Of a stretch of 64,000 nucleotides of DNA, positions 6,069 through 60,853 are shown in pieces. Both the position numbers and the translations under genes were made by a program. The stretch comes from an uncultured Collinsella sp. (GTDB taxonomy: Bacteria; Actinomycetota; Coriobacteriia; Coriobacteriales; Coriobacteriaceae). The notes under the pieces were generated by a model. It made no database searches. It was not told the origin of the DNA and saw only the letters and a list, made by a program, of their open reading frames with translations. The stretch is taken from positions 73,978 to 137,977 of the forward strand of contig CALHJP010000001.1 of the NCBI GenBank assembly GCA_938033205.1, given 5' to 3'. Each line of letters begins with the position of its first letter. Within the stretch, counting starts at the first letter, position 1.

Positions 6069-8819
6069 CTATTTCGCGTCGGCCCAGGTTATGCCGGTGC
6101 TGGCTTCGGCGATTAGGGGGACGCGGAGGTCTACTACGTGTTCCATGACGTCGCGGACCATGGCGGTGAGGCGCTCGACTTCGTCGACGGGGCACTCAAA
6201 GTCCAGTTCGTCGTGTACCTGCAGAATCATGTGGGCAGCAAAGCCCTCTTCTTCCAGGCGGCGGCTTACGCGGGCCATGGCGATCTTGATGATGTCGGCG
6301 GCGGTGCCCTGCATGGGGTGGTTCATGGCCGTGCGCTCACCAAAGCCGCGGAGCTGCGGGTTTTTGGCCTTGAGCTCAGGAATATGGCGACGGCGGCCGT
6401 ACATGGTCTCGGCATAGCCCGTCTGCTTGGCACGCGCCACCACGTTGTCGAGGAACGTACGCACGCCCGGGTATGCCTCGTAGTAGCGGTCGATCATGTC
6501 GCGTGCCTCGGCCATCGAGATATGCAGCGACTGCGATAGGCCGTAAGCCTGCTGACCATACACGATGCCAAAGTTCACGGCCTTGGCGCGGCTGCGCAGG
6601 TCGGGCGTCACCTCGGACACCGGCACGCCAAACACGCGCGCGGCCGTCTCGGCATGGAAGTCCTCGCCCTCGTTAAAGGCGCGCACCAGATGCTCGTCAC
6701 CCGAGAGATGCGCCAGCAGACGCAGCTCGATCTGCGAGTAGTCCACCGCCAAAAAGACGCTTCCCTCGCCTGCCGAAAACGCCGTCTTGACAGTACGGCC
6801 CAGCTCCGAGCGCGTCGGGATGTTCTGAAGGTTCGGGTCACTCGAGGACAGACGACCCGTCGCCGTGATGGTCTGGTTGTACGTGGTGTGCACGCGACCG
6901 TCACCACGACGCAACGGGCCCAGCGTGTCCAGATAGGTGGACTTGATCTTGGACTTCTCACGCCAGTCCAAGATCAGACGCACGATTTCGTGGTCACGGG
7001 CAAGGTCGCTCAGCACCTTGGCGTTGGTCGAATAATAGCCGCGCTTGGTCTTTTTGAGGCCCTTGGTCGGAAGGCCCATCACGTCAAAGAGCACGTGCGA
7101 GAGCTGCATGGGACTGCCGATGTTAAAGGTCTCGTCGCCGGCCAGATCGCGAATGCTCCGCTCGATCTCGGCAATCTGGGTCGCCAGACCCTCGGACAGA
7201 CTATGCAGGCGGTCGGGGTCCACGAGCATGCCCGCGCGCTCCATCTTGGCAAGCACCGGCACGAGCGGCATCTCGATGCCATCGAACACGTTGGCGGCGT
7301 TCTCGCGGGCCATGCGGTCGCGCAGCGGCGCCACGAGCGCCAGCGTCAGGGCCGCAGTGCGGGCAGCAGGGGCAGGAGCGTCCTCGCCAGCACCCTCCGC
7401 GCCGCGCGCCGCAGGCAGCGTCATCTGCAGATAGGTATCGGCCAGATACGCCTCATCAAACTCGGAGCGGTCGGAATCCAACAGATAGGCGGCGACCACA
7501 GTATCGAAGATGCGCGTGGAATCGACGGCCAGCGGATCCATGAGCTCGGGCTCAGAGGAATCGATGGGCGAAAGCTCGTGCAGCAGCGCCTTCATGTCCG
7601 GGCTCGCCACGCGGCCCTCCATAAACAGGCGCGCGAGCACGCCGGCGACCACGCCGTGGGCAACGTTGAAGCCATCGACCACGGCAGACGCACCGCCGTC
7701 GCCCTCCTCGAGCGCAAGCAACCCCTTGGACGTCGCCAGCCACAGCGTGCGCGTCAGGCCAAAAAGTGCGCCTTCCTCCTTGTCATCGTCCACCACGGCG
7801 GCGACCCACTCGCCCGCCTCGATCGCACGGACAACCTCGGACGCCACGGCAGCAAGCGCCTCGGCATCGCCGGCAGCGGTGCGCTCAATCGTGGGCATCT
7901 CAAACGTGCTAGCAGCGGCCGCAGCCCCGCCCTCGCCGCCAATCAGCGCCAAAAAACGGTTCTGCATGGCCGTAATGCCGAGCGTGCCCAGCGTAGCGGA
8001 CACCTCGTCGGCAGAAAACGCCGGGAAGGACGTCGCATCAAAGTCGAGCTCGACAGGCGCATCGGTACGAATGGTTGCGACCTTGCGGCTCAGCAGCGCG
8101 TCGTCGATATGCGCGCGCAGGTTCTCGCCCATCTTGCCCTTGACCTCGTCGGCATGTGCGATGACCTCGTCCAGGCTGCCGTACTGCGCGATGAGCGCGC
8201 TCGCCTTTTTGGGGCCGATGCCCGGCACGCCGGGAATGTTGTCGGAAGTATCGCCCTTCAGGCCGTAAAAATCGGGCACGAGCGCCGGTGTAATGCCGTG
8301 ATACAGGTCGTCCACGCTCTCGGGCGTCATGATCGCCACGTCGGACAGGCCTTTGCGGGTCGAGACCACGTTGACGTGCTCGGTCACGAGCTGATACATG
8401 TCGCGGTCGCCGGTCACCAGCAGCATGTCGCAGCCGGCTTCCTCGCCCAGGCGCGCCATGGTGCCCAGGATATCGTCACCTTCCCAGCCCTCGGACTGCA
8501 AAATCGGCACGTTGAGCGCAGCGAGCAGCTCCTTAATCATGGGGAACTGCGCGTGCAGGTCGGGGTCCATGGGCGGGCGCTGCGCCTTATACTGCGGCAG
8601 CATCTCCATGCGCACGCGCGGCTTGCCCTTATCAAACGCCACGACCACACCGTCGGGGTTAAAGGCGTCGATCATCTTGAGAAACATGTTTAAAAAGCCA
8701 AAGATCGCGTTGGTGGGGCGACCGTCCGGCGCGTTCATGGTGGGCGGCACGGCGTGGAAGGCGCGGTGCATGAGCGAGTTGCCGTCGATAACGGCAAAGG
8801 TGCGGCGCTTGTCAGACAT
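6069..8819 (-). CDS. polA: DNA polymerase I
   Basis: 916 aa with an N-terminal 5'-3' exonuclease region (AVIDGNSLMHRAFHA), central region, and polymerase motifs (DYSQIELR, KAVNFGIVYG, QVHDEL). Confidence 0.95.
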   Translation of the reverse strand: MSDKRRTFAVIDGNSLMHRAFHAVPPTMNAPDGRPTNAIFGFLNMFLKMIDAFNPDGVVVAFDKGKPRVRMEMLPQYKAQRPPMDPDLHAQFPMIKELLAALNVPILQSEGWEGDDILGTMARLGEEAGCDMLLVTGDRDMYQLVTEHVNVVSTRKGLSDVAIMTPESVDDLYHGITPALVPDFYGLKGDTSDNIPGVPGIGPKKASALIAQYGSLDEVIAHADEVKGKMGENLRAHIDDALLSRKVATIRTDAPVELDFDATSFPAFSADEVSATLGTLGITAMQNRFLALIGGEGGAAAAASTFEMPTIERTAAGDAEALAAVASEVVRAIEAGEWVAAVVDDDKEEGALFGLTRTLWLATSKGLLALEEGDGGASAVVDGFNVAHGVVAGVLARLFMEGRVASPDMKALLHELSPIDSSEPELMDPLAVDSTRIFDTVVAAYLLDSDRSEFDEAYLADTYLQMTLPAARGAEGAGEDAPAPAARTAALTLALVAPLRDRMARENAANVFDGIEMPLVPVLAKMERAGMLVDPDRLHSLSEGLATQIAEIERSIRDLAGDETFNIGSPMQLSHVLFDVMGLPTKGLKKTKRGYYSTNAKVLSDLARDHEIVRLILDWREKSKIKSTYLDTLGPLRRGDGRVHTTYNQTITATGRLSSSDPNLQNIPTRSELGRTVKTAFSAGEGSVFLAVDYSQIELRLLAHLSGDEHLVRAFNEGEDFHAETAARVFGVPVSEVTPDLRSRAKAVNFGIVYGQQAYGLSQSLHISMAEARDMIDRYYEAYPGVRTFLDNVVARAKQTGYAETMYGRRRHIPELKAKNPQLRGFGERTAMNHPMQGTAADIIKIAMARVSRRLEEEGFAAHMILQVHDELDFECPVDEVERLTAMVRDVMEHVVDLRVPLIAEASTGITWADAK

Positions 8820-8986
8820 ATTGAATACCTCGCTTTGGGCTGGGCACGATTTGCTCCCACCAGTTTACACGCTCCCCGCCTCGCGGCCACCGCACATCAA
8901 GCTCCTCCGCCACCGCGCGCCCGCGCGTGATACGATGGCTCACGGTACATTAACCAGCACGATCGATCCGAAAGGAGCCTGCGTCA

Positions 8987-10383
8987 TGGAGCGTCCCTGC
9001 GCATGGAAAAAGTACACGCCACAGCAGATCGAGGAGCTCGAGGAGCTTTGCCGCGGCTATAAGCAGTTTTTGAGTGAGAACAAGACCGAGCGCCTGTGTG
9101 TCAAGGCCGGCATCAAGATGGCCGAGGAGGCGGGCTACGTCGACCTGGAGACCGTGATCGCCGAAGGCCGCGAGCTCAAGGCAGGCGACAAGGTGTACGC
9201 CGCCAACCACGGCAAGGACCTTATGCTCGTCAACCTTGGAACCGCCCCGCTCGAGCAGGGCTTTAACATCCTGGGCGCCCACGTGGACTCGCCTCGCCTG
9301 GACCTCAAGCAAAATCCCGCCTTCGAGGCCGGCGACATGGCCTACCTCGACACGCACTACTACGGCGGCGTCAAGAGCTACCACTGGGTGGCCTCCCCGC
9401 TCGCGCTTGTGGGCGTCATCTGCAAAAAGGACGGCACCACCGTCGACATCAACATCGGCGACAAGGCTGACGACCCGGTCTTTACCATCTCCGACCTGCT
9501 GATTCACCTCTCGAGCGAGCAGATGGCCAAGCCCGCCAAGGACGCCGTCGACGCCGAGATCCTCGACGTGATTGTGGGCGGCCGCCCCGTCAAGTTTGAC
9601 GAGGACGACAAGGACGCTCCCAAGGAGCCCGTCAAGCAGATGTTCCTGGATATCCTCAAGGAGCAGTACGACGTCGAGGAGGAGGACTTCCTCTCCGCCG
9701 AAATCGAGGTCGTGCCCGCCGGCCCGGCCCGCGACATGGGCCTCGACCGCTCCATGATTCTGGGCTATGGCCATGACGACCGCGTTTGCGCCTACCCCTC
9801 CATGCTCGCCCAGATCAATGTGGCCAATGTCGAGCGCACGAGCATCACACTCATCGTCGACAAGGAGGAGATTGGTTCCGTGGGTGCCACCGGCATGACG
9901 AGCCGCTTCTTCGAGAACACCGTCGCCGAGATCATGACGCTCGCCGGCGAGGATAGCCCGCTGGCCCTGCGCCGCGCACTCGCCCACAGCCGCATGCTCT
10001 CCTCTGACGTGTCCGCGGGCTTCGACCCGGGCTACGCCGGCAAGTTCGAAACCAAGAACGCAGCCTTTATGGGTCGCGGCCTGTGCTTTAACAAGTACAC
10101 GGGCAGCCGCGGCAAGGGCGGCTCTAACGACGCCGACGCCGAGTATGTGGCCCTCATCCGCGACATCATGGACGAGGCGGGCGTTGACTTCCAGACCTGC
10201 GAGCTCGGCCGCGTCAACGCAGGTGGCGGCGGCACCATCGCCTACATCATGGCCAAGTACGGCATGAACGTCATCGACTCCGGTGTTGCCGTCCTGTCCA
10301 TGCACGCCCTGTGGGAGGTCGCTAACAAGGCCGATATCTACGAGGCCTATCGCGGCTACAAGGCCTTCATCGAGCGCGCCTAA
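8987..10383 (+). CDS. M18-family aminopeptidase (aspartyl aminopeptidase-like)
   Basis: MERPCAWKKYTPQQIEELEE...GAHVDSPRLDLK...GYGHDDRVCAY... resemble peptidase M18/M42; start ATG 8987 is preceded by GAAAGGAG. Confidence 0.8.
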
Positions 10384-50223: not shown

Positions 50224-50381
50224 ATATGGCTCCCGTCCCGTTTCCATTTAATGTCTTAGGCGATTATAACGGAGCCTGCCCTCCCCGATGCCCAGGCCAT
50301 CAACAGGCACCAACCAAACACGCCCACCGCAACCGCCGGGGACCCGGGGTGGCTCATTTGGAACGGGAAACAAGGCACTCA

Positions 50382-50560
50382 GCACCAACAATGAAAACGT
50401 CGCAGGTTGAGCATAAGCCAGCGAAAGCCCGCCAGAACGAGCAAGCAGCCCCCTGCACCAACAATGGCAACGCCGCAGGTTGAGCATAAGTCAGCGAAAG
50501 CCCGCCAGAGTAGGCAAGGTGCCCCCGCACCAACAATGGAAAGCGCCGCAGGCAGAGGAC
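50382..50560 (+). repeat. Tandem direct repeat, 72-73 bp unit, 2.5 copies
   Basis: Copies begin at 50382, 50455 and 50527 (GCACCAACAATGRMAACGYCGCAGGTTGAGCATAAGYCAGCGAAAGCCCGCCAGA...); copies 1 and 2 are about 85 percent identical and the third is truncated. Confidence 0.8.
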
Positions 50561-50850: not shown

Positions 50851-52329
50851 TTAGAGCATCACGCAAGCGACGGTCAGGATGATGGCGCAGACGACGGAGA
50901 GAGCGACGATAAGCTTAAGGGCAAACTTGAGCCAGGTCGTCCACTCGATCTTGGCCAGGGCAAGACCGCCCATGATGGCGCCAGAGGTCGGGGTGAACAG
51001 GTTCACGACGCCGATGGCGGCGGAGAAGATCATAACCATGACCTCGGGCGAGAAGCCGAGCTTAACAGCCAGCGGTCCCATGATGGGCATGGAGACAGTA
51101 GCCATACCGGAGGTCGAGGGGATCAGGAAGGACAGGCCGAAGTAGACCAGGAAGCTCATGGGAGCGAAGATCACGCCGGACAGGCCAGCCAGAGCATTGG
51201 CGGCAGCGTCGAGGACGTAGACGTCGAGGCCGGTGCTAGCCATGAGGACGGAAATACCACGGGCGAGGGCGATAACGAGGACAACGGACATCATGTCGGC
51301 AGCGCCGGTGATGAAGGTGTTGACGATCTGCTTCTCGGAGAGGCCACCGATGATACCGATCAGGATAGCCATGAGGAAGAACCAGGTGGAAGCCTCGTCG
51401 AAGTACCACTGGCCAATGGGCAGGCCGGTGATCAGGGCAGACCAGCCCTGGACGACGGCGTTACCGTCGGCGTCATAGACAGCGCCAGCATCGAAGAAGT
51501 TGGCGACGCCCTCGTTGAGGTCGGCCAGCGGGATGAAGCCGACGATCATGACGACGAAGGTGAAGGCAAAGGCGATCAGAACACCCTTCTGACGACCGGT
51601 GAGCTTGACCTCCTTGTGAACCTCGGAAGCAGCCTTGCCGTGAGCCTCTTCGGCGTCCTTGAGCTCCTGCATCGAAAGGATGGTGGAACCCTTGTCAGCC
51701 TTGACCTTCTTGGCATAGCTCATGACGAAGAAGATGGACATGGCAGTGGTAACAATCCACAGGACGGCACCGAGGCCGATGATGATGGACTGGTTGACCT
51801 CAATGCCAACGCCGGTCAGAGCGTCGACGGCAGCGCCGACGGCGAACGGGTTAACCGTGGAGCCCAGGCAGCCGCAGCCAGCGCCGAGCAGGACGGTGGC
51901 AGCACCGACCATAGGGTCGAAGCCAGCGGCCATCATGGTAGCGGCAAGCAGGGCGTAGAAGGGAACGGTTTCCTCGCACATACCATAGGTGGTACCACCG
52001 AGGGAGAAGATGAGCATCAGCACGGGAATGAGCATGATCTCATTGCCCTTAAGCTTCTGCACCAGAACGGCAATGCCGTTGTCCAGAGCGCCGGTCTCGG
52101 TCATCATGCCGAGGAAGCCGCCGAGGATCATAACGAAGAGGCAGACGGGCAGAGCGTCAGCGAAGCCCTTGACCGGGGCGGTGCAGAAATCGCTCAGGCG
52201 GGCAGCGGTAACCGCGCCACCGGACGTACCGGAGACGATAACGGTAACAACCGCGACAATTGCCAGCAGAGCAAGAAGAATGGTGAACGATGAAGGCATA
52301 CCGCGCTTTTTCTTAGCGGTCTCAGTCAT
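50851..52329 (-). CDS. arcD: Putative arginine/ornithine antiporter, YfcC/DcuC-type (ArcD-like)
   Basis: A membrane protein of about 490 aa with about 12 TM segments, in the C4-dicarboxylate anaerobic carrier/YfcC superfamily; co-operonic with arcA and arcB. Confidence 0.7.
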   Translation of the reverse strand: MTETAKKKRGMPSSFTILLALLAIVAVVTVIVSGTSGGAVTAARLSDFCTAPVKGFADALPVCLFVMILGGFLGMMTETGALDNGIAVLVQKLKGNEIMLIPVLMLIFSLGGTTYGMCEETVPFYALLAATMMAAGFDPMVGAATVLLGAGCGCLGSTVNPFAVGAAVDALTGVGIEVNQSIIIGLGAVLWIVTTAMSIFFVMSYAKKVKADKGSTILSMQELKDAEEAHGKAASEVHKEVKLTGRQKGVLIAFAFTFVVMIVGFIPLADLNEGVANFFDAGAVYDADGNAVVQGWSALITGLPIGQWYFDEASTWFFLMAILIGIIGGLSEKQIVNTFITGAADMMSVVLVIALARGISVLMASTGLDVYVLDAAANALAGLSGVIFAPMSFLVYFGLSFLIPSTSGMATVSMPIMGPLAVKLGFSPEVMVMIFSAAIGVVNLFTPTSGAIMGGLALAKIEWTTWLKFALKLIVALSVVCAIILTVACVML

Positions 52330-52476
52330 AGTTCTCATCCCCCCTTCATAAATCATTTACTGATCTCGCCCGAAGCGGCTCTTCCGTGCCGTGCATGTCG
52401 CTCAGTGCGAGATTTTTACCAGACAAAAGCGCTCGGGGTGCGCAGCAATGCACCCCGAGCGAGATGCTAGAAGCTC

Positions 52477-53472
52477 TTACTTGAGCGTAGCGTACATGAC
52501 AGCCTTGATGGTGTGCATGCGGTTCTCGGCCTCGTCGAAGACCTTGGAAGCGGGGCTCTCGAAGACCTCGTCGGTGACCTCCTGCTCGGTGATGCCGAAC
52601 TGCTCGCACTTCTCTGCGCCAATCGTGGTGTTGGTGTCGTGGAAGCTGGGCAGGCAGTGCAGGAAGATGGCGCCCGGGTTGGCCATAGCCATGACCTCGG
52701 AGGTAACACGATACGGGGTGAGCTGAGCGATGCGCTCGGCCCAGACCTCGTCGGGCTCGCCCATGGAGACCCACACGTCGGTGTAGATGACGTCGGCACC
52801 GGTGACGCCGTCCTTGACGTCGGTGGTCAGCTTGATGGTGCAGCCGTTGGCCTCGGCGATGGGCTTGCAGGCCTCGATGACGTCGTCAGCGGGCATGCAC
52901 TCCTCGGGGCCGCAGGCCACGAAGTTCATGCCGAGCTTGGAGCAGACAACCATGAGGGAGCGAGCGACGTTGTTCTTGCAGTCGCCCATGAAGACGAGGG
53001 TCTTGCCCTTGATGTCGTAGTTGAAGTTCTCCTGGACGGTCAGGATGTCGGCGAGCATCTGGGTGGGGTGCCACTCGGTGGTCAGGCCGTTCCAGACAGG
53101 AACGCCAGCCTTAGCGGAGAGCTCCTCAACGTCGTCCTGAGCGAAACCACGGAACTCGATGCCGTCATACATGCGGCCGAGAACGCGAGCGGTGTCCTCG
53201 ATGGACTCCTTCTTGCCCATCTGCGAAGAGCCCGGATCGAGGTAGGTGACGCCCATGCCCAGATCCATGCCGCCGACCTCGAAGGCGCAGCGGGTACGAG
53301 TGGAGGTCTTCTGGAAGAGCAGGACGATGTTCTTGCCCTCGAGATAACGGTGCGGAACGCCAGCGCGCTTCATGTCCTTGAAGTTCTTGGAGAGCTTGAG
53401 CAGGTACTCGATCTCCTCGGTGGTGAGGTCGAGGAGCTTGAGGAAGCTACGGCCGGAGAGGTTAACACCCAT
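52477..53472 (-). CDS. arcB: Ornithine carbamoyltransferase (catabolic context)
   Basis: STRTR carbamoyl-phosphate motif (FQKTSTRTRCAFE), HPTQ, HCLP motifs. Confidence 0.9.
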   Translation of the reverse strand: MGVNLSGRSFLKLLDLTTEEIEYLLKLSKNFKDMKRAGVPHRYLEGKNIVLLFQKTSTRTRCAFEVGGMDLGMGVTYLDPGSSQMGKKESIEDTARVLGRMYDGIEFRGFAQDDVEELSAKAGVPVWNGLTTEWHPTQMLADILTVQENFNYDIKGKTLVFMGDCKNNVARSLMVVCSKLGMNFVACGPEECMPADDVIEACKPIAEANGCTIKLTTDVKDGVTGADVIYTDVWVSMGEPDEVWAERIAQLTPYRVTSEVMAMANPGAIFLHCLPSFHDTNTTIGAEKCEQFGITEQEVTDEVFESPASKVFDEAENRMHTIKAVMYATLK

Positions 53473-53576
53473 GGTTCGTTTCCTTTCGAAGAAATGAATT
53501 ACGTAAGTATTAGTGTTGCCCGTTTAACGGGCGAAGCCGGTGCGGTTGTAGGGGGACCGCACCGGAAACGGAAAGA

Positions 53577-54843
53577 CTTAGAGGTCCTCGCGCCAGAAGG
53601 GCATGCTCATGCAGCGCGGGCCGCCGCGGCCGCGGGAGAGCTCGGCGGAGGGCACGACGAGAAGGTCCAGGCCCTCCTTGTACAGCACGTCGTTGGTGAC
53701 GGTGTTGCGGGCGTAGACGCAGATCTTGCCGGGCTCGACGCACAGGGTGTTGGAGCCGTCGTTCCACTGCTCGCGGGAGGCCGCGATCGGGTCGCCGCCG
53801 CCGCAGGGGATCAGCTTGACCTGGTCGACGCCGGTGGCGTCCTCCAGGACGTGCTCGAGGGTGTCCTCGATCAGGCGGATGTTCACGTCGCCCGGGTTCT
53901 TGCCGGCGGTCAGCTCGTAGACGCGCAGGGTGCCCATGATGGCGGGGTGGATCGTGAACTTATCGACGTCGATCTGGGTGAAGACCGTGTCGAGGTGCAT
54001 GAAGGCGCGCGAGACCGGGATGTCGAAGGCCAGGATGCGCTCGACCTTGGAGTCGGAGTTCCAGAAGATGTTCTGGGCCATGATGTCGATCGCGGCGGCC
54101 TGGGTGCGCTGGGAGATGCCGACGGCGAGGGTCTTCTCGTTGATGTTCAGCACGTCGCCGCCCTCGGTGTGGAACTGGCAGTCGCGGCGGAAGTACAGGG
54201 AGACGTCCTTGTAGTCGGGGTGGTACTTGAAGACGTACTTGCCGTACAGGGTCTCGCGGTTGCGGGTGACCGAGTACATGCGGTTGAGGTTGACGCCCTC
54301 GCCGACGACCGCGAACGGGTCGCGGGTGAAGTAGAGGTTGGGCATCGGGTCGATGATCAGGTCGGACTCGGACTCGGAGTTGACCAGGGAGTCGAGGGTC
54401 GTGGACGCCGTGAGAGGCATGTCGATCTCGGCCTTGGTCATGCCGGCCATGGTCTTCTTGACGAACTCGAGGTTGTCCTCGATGGAGTCCAGCTTCTCGC
54501 GGACGATCTGCGGCATGTGCTGGCCGCGGATGCCCGCCTCGGCGATGTACTGGTCGGTGAACTCGGCGCGGGCGCCGGGGACCTGGTCGAACACCTCGGC
54601 GACGAGGTTCTCGAGGTAGAGCACCTCGACGCCCTGGTCCCTCAGGATCTGGGCGAAGGTGTCGTGCTCCTGCTGCGCGACCTCAAGGAACGGGACGTCG
54701 TCGAACAGGAGTCGCTCGAGCTCGTCGGGCGGCAGGTTGAGGAGCTCGTCGCCGGGACGGTGCAGGCAGACCTTCCTGAGCTTGCCGATCTCGGAAGGCA
54801 CGTGCAGACCTTTCGTCATGGCCTCCTACCTTTCTTTCGGGCC
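53577..54843 (-). repeat. 1267-bp block identical to 56653..57919 (arcA CDS plus stop plus about 24 nt of 5' leader)
   Basis: All six-frame ORFs that fall inside the two blocks translate identically in two overlapping frames; the flanks diverge exactly at 53576/56652 and 54844/57920. Confidence 0.8.
53578..54819 (-). CDS. arcA: Arginine deiminase (copy 1)
   Basis: MTKGLHVPSEIGKLRKVCLHRPGDEL...; catalytic Cys region ...KLIPCGGGD... Confidence 0.95.
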   Translation of the reverse strand: MTKGLHVPSEIGKLRKVCLHRPGDELLNLPPDELERLLFDDVPFLEVAQQEHDTFAQILRDQGVEVLYLENLVAEVFDQVPGARAEFTDQYIAEAGIRGQHMPQIVREKLDSIEDNLEFVKKTMAGMTKAEIDMPLTASTTLDSLVNSESESDLIIDPMPNLYFTRDPFAVVGEGVNLNRMYSVTRNRETLYGKYVFKYHPDYKDVSLYFRRDCQFHTEGGDVLNINEKTLAVGISQRTQAAAIDIMAQNIFWNSDSKVERILAFDIPVSRAFMHLDTVFTQIDVDKFTIHPAIMGTLRVYELTAGKNPGDVNIRLIEDTLEHVLEDATGVDQVKLIPCGGGDPIAASREQWNDGSNTLCVEPGKICVYARNTVTNDVLYKEGLDLLVVPSAELSRGRGGPRCMSMPFWREDL

Positions 54844-55393
54844 CCTGTCAGGGCCGATTCGTTAGCGCCCCTCCGTGTGAGGCGTTATTGCTGACGACAT
54901 ATTTATATCCAAAATCAGTCCATACTTCCACCTCGCCCCCGAACGGTTTTATATGAGGGGTGAACGGCATACACATATACTTCACGCATGGCACACTTTG
55001 ATATAATAAAGTGTATTTACGTGCTAAAACGCGTTTTCAGTCCAAATAGCAAATGGAACTTAACTTTATTAAACCACCCTCAAATTGCATATTTCTAATA
55101 AAGCTATGAATAGAACCAGCGATTCATGCCGCGTCTCAACCATTTTCATTTTTATTCAGAAAAAAGTTTGTCCTATTCATTTCTGGTAAACAAATTACCG
55201 TTTACCAGACGCTTGATACCGTTCACCGGAAGCTCAGTATAAGGCCCAGCGGATACCGGCTCGCTTTACGGCCCCATTTGTAACAACTTGACTTCTCGGT
55301 ATAGAAAAACGAACCCGCTTCCCCTAGGGAAACGGGTCCGTTTTCGATTATCTTCGGCCAATTTAGATAAGGCCCTCGAAAATCGTCGGAATC

Positions 55394-56518
55394 CTAGCGA
55401 TCGAACTCCGCCAGTGCCTCGCCCAAAAGCCTCAGGCCCTCGCGAAGAACGTCTTCGCTCGCGCAGTAGCCCAGGCGTGCGCCGCAGGGAAGCTCAAAGC
55501 GGCTACCGGGAACCAGCAGCACTCCCCTCTCGGCCAACAGGCGCTTGCAGAACTCCTCGTCGTCCTCGGGAATATCCAGCTGGATAAACGAGGTGGACAC
55601 GCCCTGCGGGGCCGTCCAGGAAACGCGATGCTGCGTATCGATCCAAGCCTGCGCGATATCGCGGTTGCCAAACACGATCTTGCGATTGCGCTCGAGAATC
55701 TTGTCCTTGTGCTCGAGCACGTAGGTCGCCAGGGCGTCGTTGAACACGCCGCCGCAGATCATGGTGTAATCGCGATAGGTACGGATGCGGTTGGAGACCT
55801 CTTCGTCGGCCACGACCCAGCCCACGCGAGCCGCAGGCGTCGAATAGGTCTTGGACACCGAGTTGGTGACGATGGCCCTCTCGTACACGTCGACCATCGA
55901 CATAAAGGACTCAGTGTTTTCGAGCGGCAGATACACCTCGTCGCACAGCACGTAGGCGCCCACCGAACGGGCGATCTCGGCAATCTGGCCGAGCGTATCG
56001 GCATCGAGCACCGTTCCGATGGGGTTCGATGCGTTGTTAATGCAGATGAGCTTGGTGGTGGACCGAACCAGGCGCTTGAGCTGCTCGATATCGGGTTTCC
56101 ATCCGAGCTCCTCGCGAAGCTCCCAATACTCAACCTCGGCGCCGAGCGCACGCGGGATCTCATAGAGCGGCGCATAGGTAGGCCACTCGGCAATCACATG
56201 ATCGCCGGGCTCGACAACGGCCATGATGGCGTTGAGGTTGGCACCCGTGCAGCCATTGGTCTGCAAAATGTGATCGGGATTGACCTCGCGACGATACAGC
56301 TTGGCGACTTCGGCCTTAAACTCCGGCGAACCCTCGATCCAGCCGTAATTCATCTTCTCGCGATCCAGGCGCTCGTAGAACGTAGCACCGTCCTGCTCGT
56401 CAAGTGCGCGAAGCTCACCCATGGTCAGCGACGAGATCGTCGACTGAGCGATATCCCAGGTAGCACTCTTCTCCCAAACGTTGAGCCAATCCTCAACGCC
56501 AATTGTCTTGATATCCAT
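55394..56518 (-). CDS. PLP-dependent aminotransferase, class I/II fold
   Basis: ...NNASNPIGTV..., ...TNSVSKTYSTPAARVGW... (Lys in SxSK motif); start at MDIKTIGVED confirmed at 56518. Confidence 0.8.
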   Translation of the reverse strand: MDIKTIGVEDWLNVWEKSATWDIAQSTISSLTMGELRALDEQDGATFYERLDREKMNYGWIEGSPEFKAEVAKLYRREVNPDHILQTNGCTGANLNAIMAVVEPGDHVIAEWPTYAPLYEIPRALGAEVEYWELREELGWKPDIEQLKRLVRSTTKLICINNASNPIGTVLDADTLGQIAEIARSVGAYVLCDEVYLPLENTESFMSMVDVYERAIVTNSVSKTYSTPAARVGWVVADEEVSNRIRTYRDYTMICGGVFNDALATYVLEHKDKILERNRKIVFGNRDIAQAWIDTQHRVSWTAPQGVSTSFIQLDIPEDDEEFCKRLLAERGVLLVPGSRFELPCGARLGYCASEDVLREGLRLLGEALAEFDR

Positions 56519-56653
56519 GGCCACCTTATCTGATCTTAATTTAGCGTCAATAAACATGAATGGGACGGTGCGAAAGAACCGCACCGTCCCATTGGGAGAC
56601 ATCTAATGTCAGCTAGATGTTTGTAGTAAGACCTGTACGGGTCTTTGAAAACC

Positions 56654-57895
56654 TTAGAGGTCCTCGCGCCAGAAGGGCATGCTCATGCAGCGCGGGCCGC
56701 CGCGGCCGCGGGAGAGCTCGGCGGAGGGCACGACGAGAAGGTCCAGGCCCTCCTTGTACAGCACGTCGTTGGTGACGGTGTTGCGGGCGTAGACGCAGAT
56801 CTTGCCGGGCTCGACGCACAGGGTGTTGGAGCCGTCGTTCCACTGCTCGCGGGAGGCCGCGATCGGGTCGCCGCCGCCGCAGGGGATCAGCTTGACCTGG
56901 TCGACGCCGGTGGCGTCCTCCAGGACGTGCTCGAGGGTGTCCTCGATCAGGCGGATGTTCACGTCGCCCGGGTTCTTGCCGGCGGTCAGCTCGTAGACGC
57001 GCAGGGTGCCCATGATGGCGGGGTGGATCGTGAACTTATCGACGTCGATCTGGGTGAAGACCGTGTCGAGGTGCATGAAGGCGCGCGAGACCGGGATGTC
57101 GAAGGCCAGGATGCGCTCGACCTTGGAGTCGGAGTTCCAGAAGATGTTCTGGGCCATGATGTCGATCGCGGCGGCCTGGGTGCGCTGGGAGATGCCGACG
57201 GCGAGGGTCTTCTCGTTGATGTTCAGCACGTCGCCGCCCTCGGTGTGGAACTGGCAGTCGCGGCGGAAGTACAGGGAGACGTCCTTGTAGTCGGGGTGGT
57301 ACTTGAAGACGTACTTGCCGTACAGGGTCTCGCGGTTGCGGGTGACCGAGTACATGCGGTTGAGGTTGACGCCCTCGCCGACGACCGCGAACGGGTCGCG
57401 GGTGAAGTAGAGGTTGGGCATCGGGTCGATGATCAGGTCGGACTCGGACTCGGAGTTGACCAGGGAGTCGAGGGTCGTGGACGCCGTGAGAGGCATGTCG
57501 ATCTCGGCCTTGGTCATGCCGGCCATGGTCTTCTTGACGAACTCGAGGTTGTCCTCGATGGAGTCCAGCTTCTCGCGGACGATCTGCGGCATGTGCTGGC
57601 CGCGGATGCCCGCCTCGGCGATGTACTGGTCGGTGAACTCGGCGCGGGCGCCGGGGACCTGGTCGAACACCTCGGCGACGAGGTTCTCGAGGTAGAGCAC
57701 CTCGACGCCCTGGTCCCTCAGGATCTGGGCGAAGGTGTCGTGCTCCTGCTGCGCGACCTCAAGGAACGGGACGTCGTCGAACAGGAGTCGCTCGAGCTCG
57801 TCGGGCGGCAGGTTGAGGAGCTCGTCGCCGGGACGGTGCAGGCAGACCTTCCTGAGCTTGCCGATCTCGGAAGGCACGTGCAGACCTTTCGTCAT
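56654..57895 (-). CDS. arcA: Arginine deiminase (copy 2, identical protein)
   Basis: 413-aa product identical to the 53578..54819 product. Confidence 0.95.
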   Translation of the reverse strand: MTKGLHVPSEIGKLRKVCLHRPGDELLNLPPDELERLLFDDVPFLEVAQQEHDTFAQILRDQGVEVLYLENLVAEVFDQVPGARAEFTDQYIAEAGIRGQHMPQIVREKLDSIEDNLEFVKKTMAGMTKAEIDMPLTASTTLDSLVNSESESDLIIDPMPNLYFTRDPFAVVGEGVNLNRMYSVTRNRETLYGKYVFKYHPDYKDVSLYFRRDCQFHTEGGDVLNINEKTLAVGISQRTQAAAIDIMAQNIFWNSDSKVERILAFDIPVSRAFMHLDTVFTQIDVDKFTIHPAIMGTLRVYELTAGKNPGDVNIRLIEDTLEHVLEDATGVDQVKLIPCGGGDPIAASREQWNDGSNTLCVEPGKICVYARNTVTNDVLYKEGLDLLVVPSAELSRGRGGPRCMSMPFWREDL

Positions 57896-58444
57896 GGCCT
57901 CCTACCTTTCTTTCGGGCCTTTCGGCCGAATCTATCAGCACCCTTCCGTAACGGGCGCTGCTTGCTGACAGCTCTAGTTATATCCAAATTCCACCCGCAA
58001 TTCCACCTCACCCCCGAACGGTCAACAAAGTGCGATGAACGGTATATCGCATGTGATTCCCCCATGATGCACTTCGGCGCTCTAAAGTACCTTTTCAAAG
58101 GTAAACGCTCTTTTTCCTATAAATTATCCCCATCGCATCTATAAATCCATGATTCAGAATTGCATAGGTAAAACGGTTTTATGTATATAAATGAAGCTAG
58201 CCCACGTTTTGGACCGAATTCAATGATATTCAGCTTGCCATCATTCTTATTCACGCATCTTTATCAGTTGAGTGAGAATATTGAACGCTAGCAATAGCGT
58301 CGCGAGCGTTCGTTCTATGGCCGGGCATCGTAAGAAATAGGTAAAGATACCGTTCACGCGATACGTCCGTGCCAGCGGTCAACTAAATTGAGACAATAGA
58401 GAATAGAGTTAGGCTATCGTCCCCTGCGGGGACTGAACGGACAG

Positions 58445-60853
58445 ATGCATATGCCGAGCAAAATCGAAAAGAAGCAAAAGGCCGCCAAGCTGCGTAAGCC
58501 GCCGCGTGATTTTTCGTATACGCAAAACCGAGAGCTTAGCTGGCTGCGCTTTGACGACCGCGTGCTTGACGAAGCCTTCGACGAGACCGTTCCGCTGTTC
58601 GAGCGTCTAAAGTTCGTGTCGATTTTCGAGTCCAACCTCGACGAATTCCTTATGGTGCGCGTGGGCGGCCTGTCCGATCTGGCAGAGCTCAAAAAACAGC
58701 CTGTCGACAACAAGAGCAATATGACCGCCTCCGAACAGGTCGACGCTGTCATGGCAGAGCTGCCCGGGCTCCTTACCCGTTGGGAGTCCATCTTTAAGAG
58801 CATCGAGGGCAAACTCGACACCCTGGGCGTTCACCGCGCCCGCATCGATTCGCTTACGCCCGAGGAGCGCACCTTTGTAACCCGCTACTTCCAGGCCTAC
58901 GTGTCGCCGGTTATCTCACCGTTGGTCATTGACCCGCGCCACCCCTTCCCCAACCTGCGCAACGGCGCGCTCTATCTGGCTTGTGGCCTGGACGGCGTCA
59001 CCGACGAGGAGAGCCTGCTGGGCCTTATCGAGATTCCCGCCTCGATGAACCGCGTGGTCGAGATTCCCTCGCCCGCCGGCACCTACTCCTACATCTTGCT
59101 CGAGGACGTCATTCTTGCCTGCTTGGACAGCTGCTTTGGTTCCTATAAGCCGCTCGACCGCGCTCTGATCCGCGTCACCCGCAATGCCGATATCGACCCG
59201 GACGGCGAGGGCGTCGAGGAGGAAGAGGATTACCGCCAGCACATGAAGCGCATCCTCAAGAAACGCTTGCGCCTGCAGCCGGTGGTGCTCGCGGTCTCGG
59301 GGTCGCTCGAGAAGGCGACGCTCAAGACCATCCGCAAGGCGCTCGAGCTTTCGCGCCGCTCTGTCTTTACCTGCGATATCCCGCTCGACCTAGGCTACGT
59401 CTTTGGCATTGAGGGCAAGATTCCCGAGCACCTGCGCAACGAGCTGCTCTTTACGCCGTTTAAGCCGCAGCCCAACCCCACCATCGATATGGCCCGCTCC
59501 ATCCGCGAGCAGGTACTTCAGCACGACAAGCTGCTCTTTTATCCCTATGAGGCCATGAACCCCTTCCTGGATCTGGTGCACGAGGCCGCCTACGACCCCG
59601 AGTGCATCTCACTGCGCATCACGCTCTACCGCGTGGCCAAGCAGAGCCGCCTGTGCGAGTCACTGATCGATGCCGCCGAGAACGGCAAAGAGGTCACGGT
59701 GCTCATGGAGCTCCGCGCGCGCTTTGACGAGCAGAACAACATCGAGTGGGCCGAGCGCCTGGAAGAGGCCGGCTGCACCGTCATCTACGGCTCTGAGGGC
59801 TTTAAGTGCCACTCCAAGATCTGCCAGCTCACCTATCGCGAGGGCATGGCGCTAACGCGCCTGACGCTGCTGGGCACCGGCAACTTTAACGAGAAGACGG
59901 CCAAACTCTACAGCGACTTTATGCTCATGACCGCTCACCCCGGCATCGGCGAGGACGCCAACCTGTTCTTCCGCAACCTGTCGCTGGGCAACCTGCGCGG
60001 CGATTACCGCTTCCTGGGTGTGGCGCCCGTCGGACTGAAACCGCTCATCATGCGCGGGCTTGACCGCGAGATCCAGCGCGCCCTCGCCGGCGAGCCCGCC
60101 CGCGTGTTCTTTAAACTCAACTCGCTCACCGACCGCGAGGTCATCGACAAGATCGCCGAGGCATCGTGCGCAGGAGTCCGCGTGGACATGATCATCCGCG
60201 GCATCTCGTGCCTCAAGCCGGGCGTTCCTGGCAAGACCGAGAACGTGCATGTCCGTTCTATCGTCGGACGCTTTTTGGAGCATGCGCGCGTTTACGCCTT
60301 TGGCGTGGACTCGGACATGATCTATCTGAGCTCGGCCGACATGATGACGCGCAACACCGAGCACCGCGTGGAGATCGCCTTCCCCGTGCTCGACCCCACC
60401 TGCCGCGCCCTGGTGCACGAGTACATGAGCATGCAGCTGCGCGACAACGTGAAGGCCCGCAGCCTCACGAGCGACGGCACCTGGGTCCCCGTGGAGCGCG
60501 CAGAGGGTGAGAAACCCTTCAACTCGCAGGAAACCCTGCTGGAGCGTGCCTACCGCAACGCCGAGGCCGCGCCCGAGCCCGTCATTGAGGCAAAGCCCGC
60601 CCCTGCTCCTAAGCCGCAGCCGGCCACACCCGAGGTTCAGAAGGTCCAGGCGACCGTCATTGAGCCCGAGCCCGCACCTGCACCTCAGCCCGAGCCGCAG
60701 GCAGCTAAGCCCGCACCCGAGACGAGCGCCCGTCGCGATAAGCCCGCCGGCAAGACCAAGGCCATCGAGCGCCATCGCCCCGGTCGTGTGCGCATGGGCC
60801 TGGGCCTGATCGGCCTGGGTCTTAAGACGCTCATTACCGGCAAGACGAAATAG
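58445..60853 (+). CDS. ppk: Polyphosphate kinase 1 with Pro/Ala-rich C-terminal extension
   Basis: ...FESNLDEFLMVRV..., the two PLD-like HKxxxxD-type motifs (...FKCHSKICQL..., ...GRFLEHARVYAF...); about 110 extra C-terminal residues (APEPVIEAKPAPAPKPQP...RMGLGLIGLGLKTLITGKTK). Confidence 0.9.
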   Translation: MHMPSKIEKKQKAAKLRKPPRDFSYTQNRELSWLRFDDRVLDEAFDETVPLFERLKFVSIFESNLDEFLMVRVGGLSDLAELKKQPVDNKSNMTASEQVDAVMAELPGLLTRWESIFKSIEGKLDTLGVHRARIDSLTPEERTFVTRYFQAYVSPVISPLVIDPRHPFPNLRNGALYLACGLDGVTDEESLLGLIEIPASMNRVVEIPSPAGTYSYILLEDVILACLDSCFGSYKPLDRALIRVTRNADIDPDGEGVEEEEDYRQHMKRILKKRLRLQPVVLAVSGSLEKATLKTIRKALELSRRSVFTCDIPLDLGYVFGIEGKIPEHLRNELLFTPFKPQPNPTIDMARSIREQVLQHDKLLFYPYEAMNPFLDLVHEAAYDPECISLRITLYRVAKQSRLCESLIDAAENGKEVTVLMELRARFDEQNNIEWAERLEEAGCTVIYGSEGFKCHSKICQLTYREGMALTRLTLLGTGNFNEKTAKLYSDFMLMTAHPGIGEDANLFFRNLSLGNLRGDYRFLGVAPVGLKPLIMRGLDREIQRALAGEPARVFFKLNSLTDREVIDKIAEASCAGVRVDMIIRGISCLKPGVPGKTENVHVRSIVGRFLEHARVYAFGVDSDMIYLSSADMMTRNTEHRVEIAFPVLDPTCRALVHEYMSMQLRDNVKARSLTSDGTWVPVERAEGEKPFNSQETLLERAYRNAEAAPEPVIEAKPAPAPKPQPATPEVQKVQATVIEPEPAPAPQPEPQAAKPAPETSARRDKPAGKTKAIERHRPGRVRMGLGLIGLGLKTLITGKTK

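Follow-up and report, generated by a model that had tools for sequence, protein, structure and literature searches.

Two identical arginine deiminase genes in the Collinsella aerofaciens complex probably evolve in concert by gene conversion

Introduction

The closest described parallel to the gene pair treated here is tufA/tufB, which encodes EF-Tu and for which Abdulkarim and Hughes are said to have established, in 1996, concerted evolution by RecA-dependent gene conversion. Concerted evolution of tufA/tufB extends to Salmonella, E. coli and many other bacteria, as PMC6053082 relates with citation of Lathe & Bork 2001 and Kondrashov et al. 2007. In this study we analyze a directly repeated arcA gene, coding for arginine deiminase (ADI), in an uncultured Collinsella sp. 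(GenBank assembly GCA_938033205.1, contig CALHJP010000001.1). The stretch analyzed comprises 64,000 nt (positions 73,978 to 137,977 of the contig, forward strand) and is called the window; coordinates given without a contig name refer to it.

Like tufA/tufB, the arcA pair stems from an old duplication, the gene concerned is protein-coding and highly conserved, its paralogues in one genome are closer to each other than orthologues are between genomes, and homogenization appears essentially limited to the coding sequence (CDS), with flanking genes and promoters that differ. However, the arcA copies lie 3.1 kb apart in direct orientation while the tuf copies are far apart on the chromosome, arcA codes for a catabolic enzyme and not for a translation factor, and its duplication is young at the clade level, belonging to one species complex. 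Additionally, arcA is not in the list of 26 concertedly evolving prokaryotic genes given in PMC6053082.

Adjacent duplication in the arginine deiminase pathway has a precedent in Laribacter hongkongensis, where adjacent duplicated arc cassettes have been read as selection for ADI capacity and both arcA copies are functional (PMC3936950). In that organism the whole arcABCD cassette is duplicated, whereas the duplication described here took in a promoter region and arcA alone. Sequence identity and conversion between the Laribacter copies are not discussed in that report (PMC3936950), while the Collinsella copies are identical and one of them is paired with an aminotransferase gene.

The arcA pair also resembles cases of GC-biased gene conversion (gBGC) in having a raised G+C content at third codon positions (GC3), an excess of changes from A or T to G or C (weak to strong, W→S), and a depletion of A/T alleles that does not extend to G↔C changes. 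Eukaryotic paralogues that evolve in concert, such as the histone and Hsp70 families, show GC3 enrichment. For bacteria, gBGC has been described by Lassalle et al. 2015 (PMC4450053) with evidence from allelic recombination across core genes. Unlike the bacterial evidence so far, arcA represents an intragenomic pair of paralogues at a single locus.

Collinsella aerofaciens is among the most abundant Actinobacteria of the human gut and turns arginine into citrulline and ornithine (preprint 10.64898/2026.08.03.742426). We found no mention of two arcA copies in titles and abstracts of the Collinsella papers retrieved or in the full text of that preprint. We regard the pair as a further case of a known process, with the GC3 pattern alone being a feature that might reach further. 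Because a 1,267-bp repeat breaks short-read assemblies, the identical pair affects read mapping, the completeness of metagenome-assembled genomes (MAGs) and estimates of copy number. Metabolic models are likewise affected, as ADI is encoded at double the dosage of ornithine carbamoyltransferase (OTC), a gene ratio of 2:1. The locus is well suited to studying concerted evolution, as it provides haplotypes by the dozen, borders that are conserved and tract ends that visibly shift, and its lineage-specific jump in GC3 to ~0.98 offers a concrete way to ask if bacterial gene conversion is GC-biased. If such a bias is true and general, concertedly evolving pairs of bacterial paralogues would allow the disputed hypothesis of gBGC in bacteria to be tested cleanly and with expression matched.

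An exact repeat that contains arcA

A position-by-position comparison of the window with itself at an offset of 3076 gives a single unbroken run of 1,267 nt with 0 mismatches, in which 53577-54843 equals 56653-57919. A perfect match of this length cannot have originated by chance. The identity spans 24 nt 5' of the arcA ATG, a leader that includes an AGGAGG ribosome-binding site, followed by the whole CDS and 1 nt past the TAA stop codon. The two copies are as follows.

56653..57919, minus strand: repeat copy 1 with arcA-1 (CDS 56654-57895, 413 aa), first gene of a unit of arcA-1 and an aminotransferase gene; 24-nt leader with the ribosome-binding site, 1 nt after the stop
53577..54843, minus strand: repeat copy 2 with arcA-2 (CDS 53578-54819, 413 aa), at the head of the arcA-2/OTC/transporter operon, whose gene order is the ancestral one

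A preliminary description of this DNA had claimed two arcA genes for the same 413-aa protein, complete DNA identity from the stop codon through a leader of ~24 nt at an offset of 3076, an abrupt loss of identity at both ends, and an aminotransferase gene between the copies. Each of these statements holds, as both minus-strand open reading frames are identical, the 1,267 nt align without a mismatch, mismatches start directly beyond either end of the run, and the intervening gene encodes a pyridoxal phosphate (PLP)-dependent aminotransferase of the PRK07324 family as judged by its match to NF005593.

The ArcA protein is a full-length match to the arginine deiminase family TIGR01078 (494.2 bits, cut-off 489.1) and also matches NF002381 (479 bits, cut-off 414) and Pfam PF02274 (E=3e-114, residues 36-410). 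Its translation ends in ...RGRGGPRCMSMPFWREDL, and the C-terminal motif GGxxCM, known from ADI structures, is present with a cysteine that is the predicted catalytic residue.

Distribution and ancestral state

Loci for comparison were gathered by an exact-protein look-up together with a scan of the species representatives in GTDB. About 90 arcA loci were recovered, all of them from Collinsella including C. aerofaciens. ArcA protein identity falls to ~89% in other named Collinsella species and to ~84% in Enorma. The two-copy layout (arcA, aminotransferase, second promoter region, arcA, OTC, transporter) is present with the same gene order on 53 independent contigs from the C. aerofaciens complex, to which the organism of the window also belongs. 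Of these contigs, 45 are from GTDB species representatives and two (L001 and L097) are OPERA-MS hybrid long-read assemblies.

A single arcA followed by OTC and a DcuC-family carrier is found in four outgroup taxa, these being a Collinsella species with a 2.1-Mb polished long-read contig, its close relative, C. phocaeensis and Enorma. Since these four outgroups have one copy and the complex has two, sequence comparison places the duplication on the stem of the C. aerofaciens complex. The preliminary description had asked whether one or two copies was ancestral; the outgroups point to one, with two throughout the 53 contigs of the complex. The arc operon of C. phocaeensis ends with an aminotransferase gene orthologous to that of the complex (69% identity), and by this comparison the association of the aminotransferase with the arc genes is an old one.

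Among the compared loci we found no lineage between the ingroup and single-copy species of ≤90% identity. Two candidates for a nearer outgroup were rejected. P0022 (91% identity) proved to be a hybrid contig that belongs to the ingroup and is full of errors, and P0002 is a single-copy contig with many frameshifts in which 108 nt are duplicated internally. The frameshift-rich, single-copy contig L100 (4579-5953) has an arcA with an internal in-frame duplication of 108 nt (449 aa), which is probably an artefact of assembly or sequencing.

Evidence for concerted evolution

Two non-coding regions upstream of the arcA copies are central to the comparisons below.

57920..58444, minus strand: U1, AT-rich region of arcA-1 considered a promoter/operator region, between the divergent ppk gene and arcA-1; GC 0.40-0.46
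54844..55393, minus strand: U2, AT-rich upstream region of arcA-2, after the aminotransferase terminator; GC down to 0.32

Within genomes the two arcA copies are nearly always the same. No difference exists in 42 loci, and a single nucleotide differs in each of the remaining 11, six of which have TAG versus TAA at the last base of the CDS. Between genomes the gene varies, with two-copy loci lying 2-18 nt from the arcA of the window and pairs of genomes up to ~23 nt apart. CDS identity is 99.98% within genomes and 99.28% between them. We counted 57 distinct CDS haplotypes among 52 genomes and 59 segregating sites over the 53 two-copy loci, 45 of them at third codon positions. When each genome is considered at each site, the minor allele occurs in both copies in 307 of 318 cells and the copies are discordant in 11.

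The flanks behave differently from the CDS. Flanking genes of the two-copy contigs differ by 3-12%, and U1 and U2 within one genome are ~63% identical over the 300 nt 5' of the repeat (shuffled controls give 50%), while over the same 300 nt between genomes U1-U1 identity is 83% and U2-U2 identity is 92%. Thus the upstream regions cluster by position and the CDS clusters by genome, a classical mark of concerted evolution that excludes both a recent duplication and independent purifying selection as its source.

The borders of identity are also highly regular, as 50 of 53 two-copy contigs have the 5' border 24 nt from the ATG and 52 of 53 have the 3' border 1 nt past the stop. Two exceptions are informative. 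In L039 the U2 leader holds the U1-type GGCCGAAAGGCC hairpin and identity reaches 34 nt 5' of the ATG instead of 24, and in L061 copy 2 is preceded by ~100 nt of U1-type leader, beyond which the sequence remains U2-type. These shifted borders indicate a physical transfer of sequence between the two arcA loci. The ends of the exchanged tract thus move from genome to genome.

We put the probability that the arcA pair undergoes concerted evolution by recurrent gene conversion, of the type described for tufA/tufB, at roughly 85%. The preliminary description had listed ongoing gene conversion among its possible explanations, and it is the one favored by the comparison of genomes, with 0-1 nt of difference within them, up to ~23 nt between them, and variants that are common to both copies.

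The genome of L061, which has the extended U1-type leader, also contains an extra gene for an APC-family amino-acid permease (517 aa) between arcA-1 and the aminotransferase (L061:6273-7826, on a 1.47-Mb contig). This insertion raises the spacing of the repeats to 4,570 nt.

Alternative explanations

Several observations weigh against concerted evolution or weaken its support. Most of the comparison contigs are from short-read genome or metagenome assemblies, which are prone to collapsing near-identical repeats or to flattening bubbles caused by single-nucleotide polymorphisms. The "zero differences" may therefore be partly assembler-made, and exactness in such assemblies is not fully independent evidence. 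Furthermore, eight ingroup contigs have a U1-arcA-OTC junction with a single copy and no aminotransferase.

L019, L038, L045, L046, L058, L064, L077 and L084: single-copy junction contigs, arcA at 7977-9243 in each; L046 and L077 are isolate assemblies

These contigs may be assembler short-cuts or true deletions by recombination between the repeats, and in the latter case copy number would not be fixed at two.

An artefact of assembly or polishing, also raised in the preliminary description, would have a single arcA written twice or slightly different copies homogenized. The habit of short-read assemblers to collapse repeats speaks for such an artefact, as do the eight contigs that run from U1-arcA straight into OTC and the paths in L079 and L025 that resemble graph loops. 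However, the junction sets U1/arcA/aminotransferase and U2/arcA/OTC recur in dozens of independent assemblies made with various pipelines, including the hybrid long-read assemblies L001 and L097, and single differences between the copies survive in some assemblies, so that identity is not produced by construction. Additionally, a stand-alone contig of exactly 1,267 bp is present in five genome assemblies (L011, L031, L048, L080 and L081), four of which are from named cultured isolates, and L079 is a 3,076-bp loop contig from a MAG. These contigs are accounted for by an exact repeat of such size and spacing, which gives both forms in a de Bruijn graph. The artefact is thus not supported for the two-copy architecture and is unlikely overall.

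About as unlikely is a cassette that is amplified and deleted by unequal recombination, giving variants with one, two or at least three copies whose identity arises from loss and re-duplication. The eight single-copy junction contigs fit this behavior, as do the 3,076-bp unit contig L079 and the order aminotransferase'-U2-arcA-aminotransferase-U2-arcA in L025, but loops in a de Bruijn graph yield all of these patterns too. Moreover, re-duplication would make U1 and U2 equal again, which conflicts with their ancient divergence and with the orthology by position that each of them has in nearly all genomes. Copy-number changes of this kind could nevertheless occur alongside conversion. The L025 contig (1-4554) begins with a divergent aminotransferase allele (63 mismatches in ~576 nt) and continues as U2-arcA-aminotransferase-U2-arcA-OTC, which represents either an amplification to three units or a chimeric assembly path that joins two strains of a metagenome with low coverage.

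We consider it very unlikely that an old duplication evolved without conversion, each copy being held identical by purifying or codon-usage selection alone. The near invariance of the ArcA protein in the complex and the extreme codon bias of its gene would be in keeping with this explanation. However, 45 of the 59 variable sites are at third positions and 57 haplotypes exist; with both copies having the same minor allele in 307 of 318 cells, independent evolution would need hundreds of parallel silent substitutions. The mosaic leaders of L039 and L061 additionally reveal a transfer of sequence that selection does not provide.

Least probable of all is the very recent CDS-only duplication in this strain, too young to have diverged, that the preliminary description had suggested from the 0 differences over 1,267 nt and the sharp borders, as the layout is present with matching borders on 53 contigs from dozens of GTDB species clusters with flanking genes 3-12% apart, the duplicated upstream regions are homologous yet just ~63% identical, and lineage-specific synonymous variants sit in both copies, so that the duplication is older than the radiation of the entire complex and originally included ~500 nt of promoter region.

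Proposed mechanism

Recurrent gene conversion would account for the locus in the following manner. The ancestor would have had one arc operon consisting of a promoter region, arcA, OTC and a DcuC-family carrier. Duplication of a segment with the promoter region and arcA, on the stem of the C. aerofaciens complex, would then have given two transcription units, after which the non-coding upstream regions would have drifted to ~63% identity. The arcA CDS would have been held similar by purifying selection and repeatedly homogenized by intrachromosomal gene conversion, presumably a non-reciprocal, RecA-type homologous recombination between direct repeats 3.1 kb apart. New mutations would then be either erased or copied to the partner, so that both copies of a genome stay identical although the pair as such diverges from genome to genome. 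The 3' border would fall 1 nt after the stop, where aminotransferase-side and OTC-side sequences part, and the 5' border ~24 nt before the ATG, where the diverged leader starts and usable homology would end. The presumed outcome is one enzyme made under two promoter regions, each evolving on its own, and at twice the dosage of OTC, an imbalance that might account for the excretion of citrulline; both the promoter activity of U1 and U2 and a benefit of dosage are what we infer from this arrangement.

Base composition of the duplicated arcA

The arcA of the window has a GC3 of 0.978, the highest among the 50 open reading frames of the window (mean 0.77, sd 0.07), the runners-up, which include OTC, being at 0.89. 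With OTC used as a single-copy control gene, GC3 over 65 ingroup contigs is 0.966-0.983 for arcA and 0.867-0.903 for OTC. In nine outgroup contigs the single-copy arcA has a GC3 of 0.872-0.925, and its difference from OTC ranges from −0.035 to +0.005, with arcA exceeding its own OTC in one contig alone (+0.005).

Lineage-specific synonymous third-position changes, each polarized by three other lineages, show the same shift. The two-copy arcA lineage has 7 W→S changes and 1 S→W change, while three single-copy arcA lineages have 1 W→S and 36 S→W changes (Fisher p=1.4e-6), and OTC on the two-copy lineage has 2 W→S and 11 S→W changes (p=0.002 versus arcA). Each of the seven W→S changes is a T→C change that replaces a T-ending codon conserved in three outgroups. 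Within the complex, third-position diversity is 3.3-fold lower in arcA than in OTC (0.017 versus 0.056), and polymorphic third positions that involve A or T are 5-fold rarer (32 in 413 codons versus 135 in 331). However, sites polymorphic only for G↔C are not rarer, making up 14 of 46 in arcA and 4 of 139 in OTC (Fisher p=9e-7 for the proportion). Such a pattern would point to a force that parts G/C from A/T but does not part G from C, as gBGC predicts.

Nonetheless, other features count against gBGC. Six changes on the stem are all CTC→CTG, which resembles codon optimization or directed codon choice; codon positions 1+2 have no W→S excess (10:10); and the data effectively represent one evolutionary lineage and one locus, in a gene that is probably highly expressed. 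Codon selection in such a gene could also explain a raised GC3 and is a live confounder. We therefore offer only tentatively, and as less probable than not, the idea that GC-biased conversion between the arcA paralogues drove silent sites to a GC3 of ~0.98 and now suppresses A/T polymorphism ~5-fold while leaving G↔C variation untouched. A test of W against S alleles by the site-frequency spectrum was dropped, as the genomes are species representatives and not a population sample, and several A/T alleles are common.

Low diversity of arcA is also apparent across the complex, with its DNA being 98.6-99.8% identical among GTDB "species" (L001-L089). Neighboring sequences are less similar to the window, with values of 97.0% for OTC, 96.6% for the carrier, 93.7% for ppk, 92.2% for the aminotransferase and 83% for U1. 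Compared with outgroups, arcA is no slower than OTC. The low crown diversity of arcA may come from the same G/C-favoring force or from recombination sweeps.

The upstream regions

The preliminary description held that the regions upstream of the two copies share only short blocks. Alignment gives a different picture, as U1, U2 and the single upstream region of outgroups can be aligned over ~450 nt with common invariant blocks and motifs, and the ~63% identity of U1 and U2 exceeds the 50% of shuffled sequences. This alignability and the shared motifs imply that the duplication took in the promoter region (~500 nt). Of the two regions, U2 resembles the outgroup upstream regions more and is also better conserved. 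Around the arcA ribosome-binding site, 15 nt are invariant even across other genera, and so part of the 24-nt upstream identity reflects conservation and not conversion.

An invariant TTGGATATAA(A/C)T block in the upstream alignment is probably a -10 region. A scan of 53400-58500 with the sigma-70 consensus gave no promoter-like site, and the assignment of promoters to U1 and U2 is for this reason based solely on that block.

Both upstream regions are unusually long (~550 nt) and AT-rich, with GC down to 0.32 in a genome of 60% GC. Sites of the type RAACGGT/ACCGTTY are concentrated in them, with 7 of the 19 occurrences in the window located inside the 1,075 nt of U1+U2 (p=1.6e-8), the forward copies being distal and the reverse copies proximal. 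U1 and U2 also hold TGAAT repeats at 21-nt spacing that resemble ARG boxes, as well as a CACTTTA-N-AAAGTG palindrome. The layout of motifs is conserved in outgroups.

A structured 5' leader across the border of identity was considered and dropped. Two GC hairpins can be seen by eye, but folding was no better than that of shuffled sequences (z -1.1 and -1.3), and RNAalifold supported a single 7-pair helix with weak covariation.

Neighboring genes, transcription units and hairpins

Read along the minus strand, the locus has the order divergent ppk, U1 (525 nt), arcA-1, a spacer of 135 nt, aminotransferase, U2 (550 nt), arcA-2, OTC, carrier and a gene for a DUF1846 protein. The features besides the repeat and its upstream regions are listed here.

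56559..56593, minus strand: hairpin with a 15-bp stem and weak U tail in the arcA-1/aminotransferase spacer, from hairpin scan and folding
55394..56518, minus strand: PLP-dependent aminotransferase of the PRK07324 family (374 aa), between the arcA copies and co-oriented with arcA-1; NF005593 match
55306..55344, minus strand: intrinsic-terminator-like hairpin with an 18-bp stem followed by UUUUUC, 3' of the aminotransferase; fold z = -4.69, partly in the hairpin scan
52477..53472, minus strand: OTC (arcB-like; PF02729 and PF00185), adjoining arcA-2 on its 3' side
50851..52356, minus strand: DcuC/YfcC-family membrane carrier (PF03606, E=3e-82), a putative arginine/ornithine exchanger

The aminotransferase matches NCBIfam NF005593 with 532 bits (cut-off 476). 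Because this alignment begins at residue 29 and other assemblies have 374-aa calls, the true start is probably at 56518 and not at 56602. For the longer frame (55394-56602) the next NCBIfam matches are the γ-hydroxyarginine cyclodehydratase GntC and the capreomycidine synthase VioD, both below their cut-offs. These matches, together with the linkage to arc genes in C. phocaeensis, hint at a substrate related to arginine or citrulline. The best NCBIfam match of the carrier is YfcC, a "putative basic amino acid antiporter", at 204 bits, which is below the cut-off of 500. Within ±10 kb, the genes called in the window and related loci include none of the amino-acid-kinase family, to which carbamate kinase would belong, and carbamate kinase may be encoded elsewhere in the genome.

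Gene order and the strong terminator-like hairpin after the aminotransferase lead us to propose two transcription units, which would consist of U1/arcA-1/aminotransferase/terminator and U2/arcA-2/OTC/carrier. The arcA-1/aminotransferase spacer folds with z = -4.65 (0 of 200 shuffles were equally stable), and its hairpin at 56559-56593 may be a partial terminator or a stabilizer of the mRNA 3' end. A permissive Rfam scan of 52300-58600 found no known RNA family in the upstream regions or spacers.

Stable GC-rich hairpins that lack U tracts are present right after both arcA copies, in 53473-53577 and 56519-56653 (z ~-4.2 to -4.7), and the single-copy arcA of outgroups is likewise immediately trailed by a GC-rich hairpin. 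Such hairpins could be stabilizers of mRNA 3' ends or processing sites that raise the arcA transcript relative to downstream genes. Such a hairpin is present after every arcA, but a duplication that reached past the arcA stop was rejected as a claim, given that the downstream alignment is too poor. Finally, the spacer between the carrier and the DUF1846 gene contains a tandem pair of 73-nt units that are 82% identical (50375-50520), and the length of this spacer differs among related contigs.

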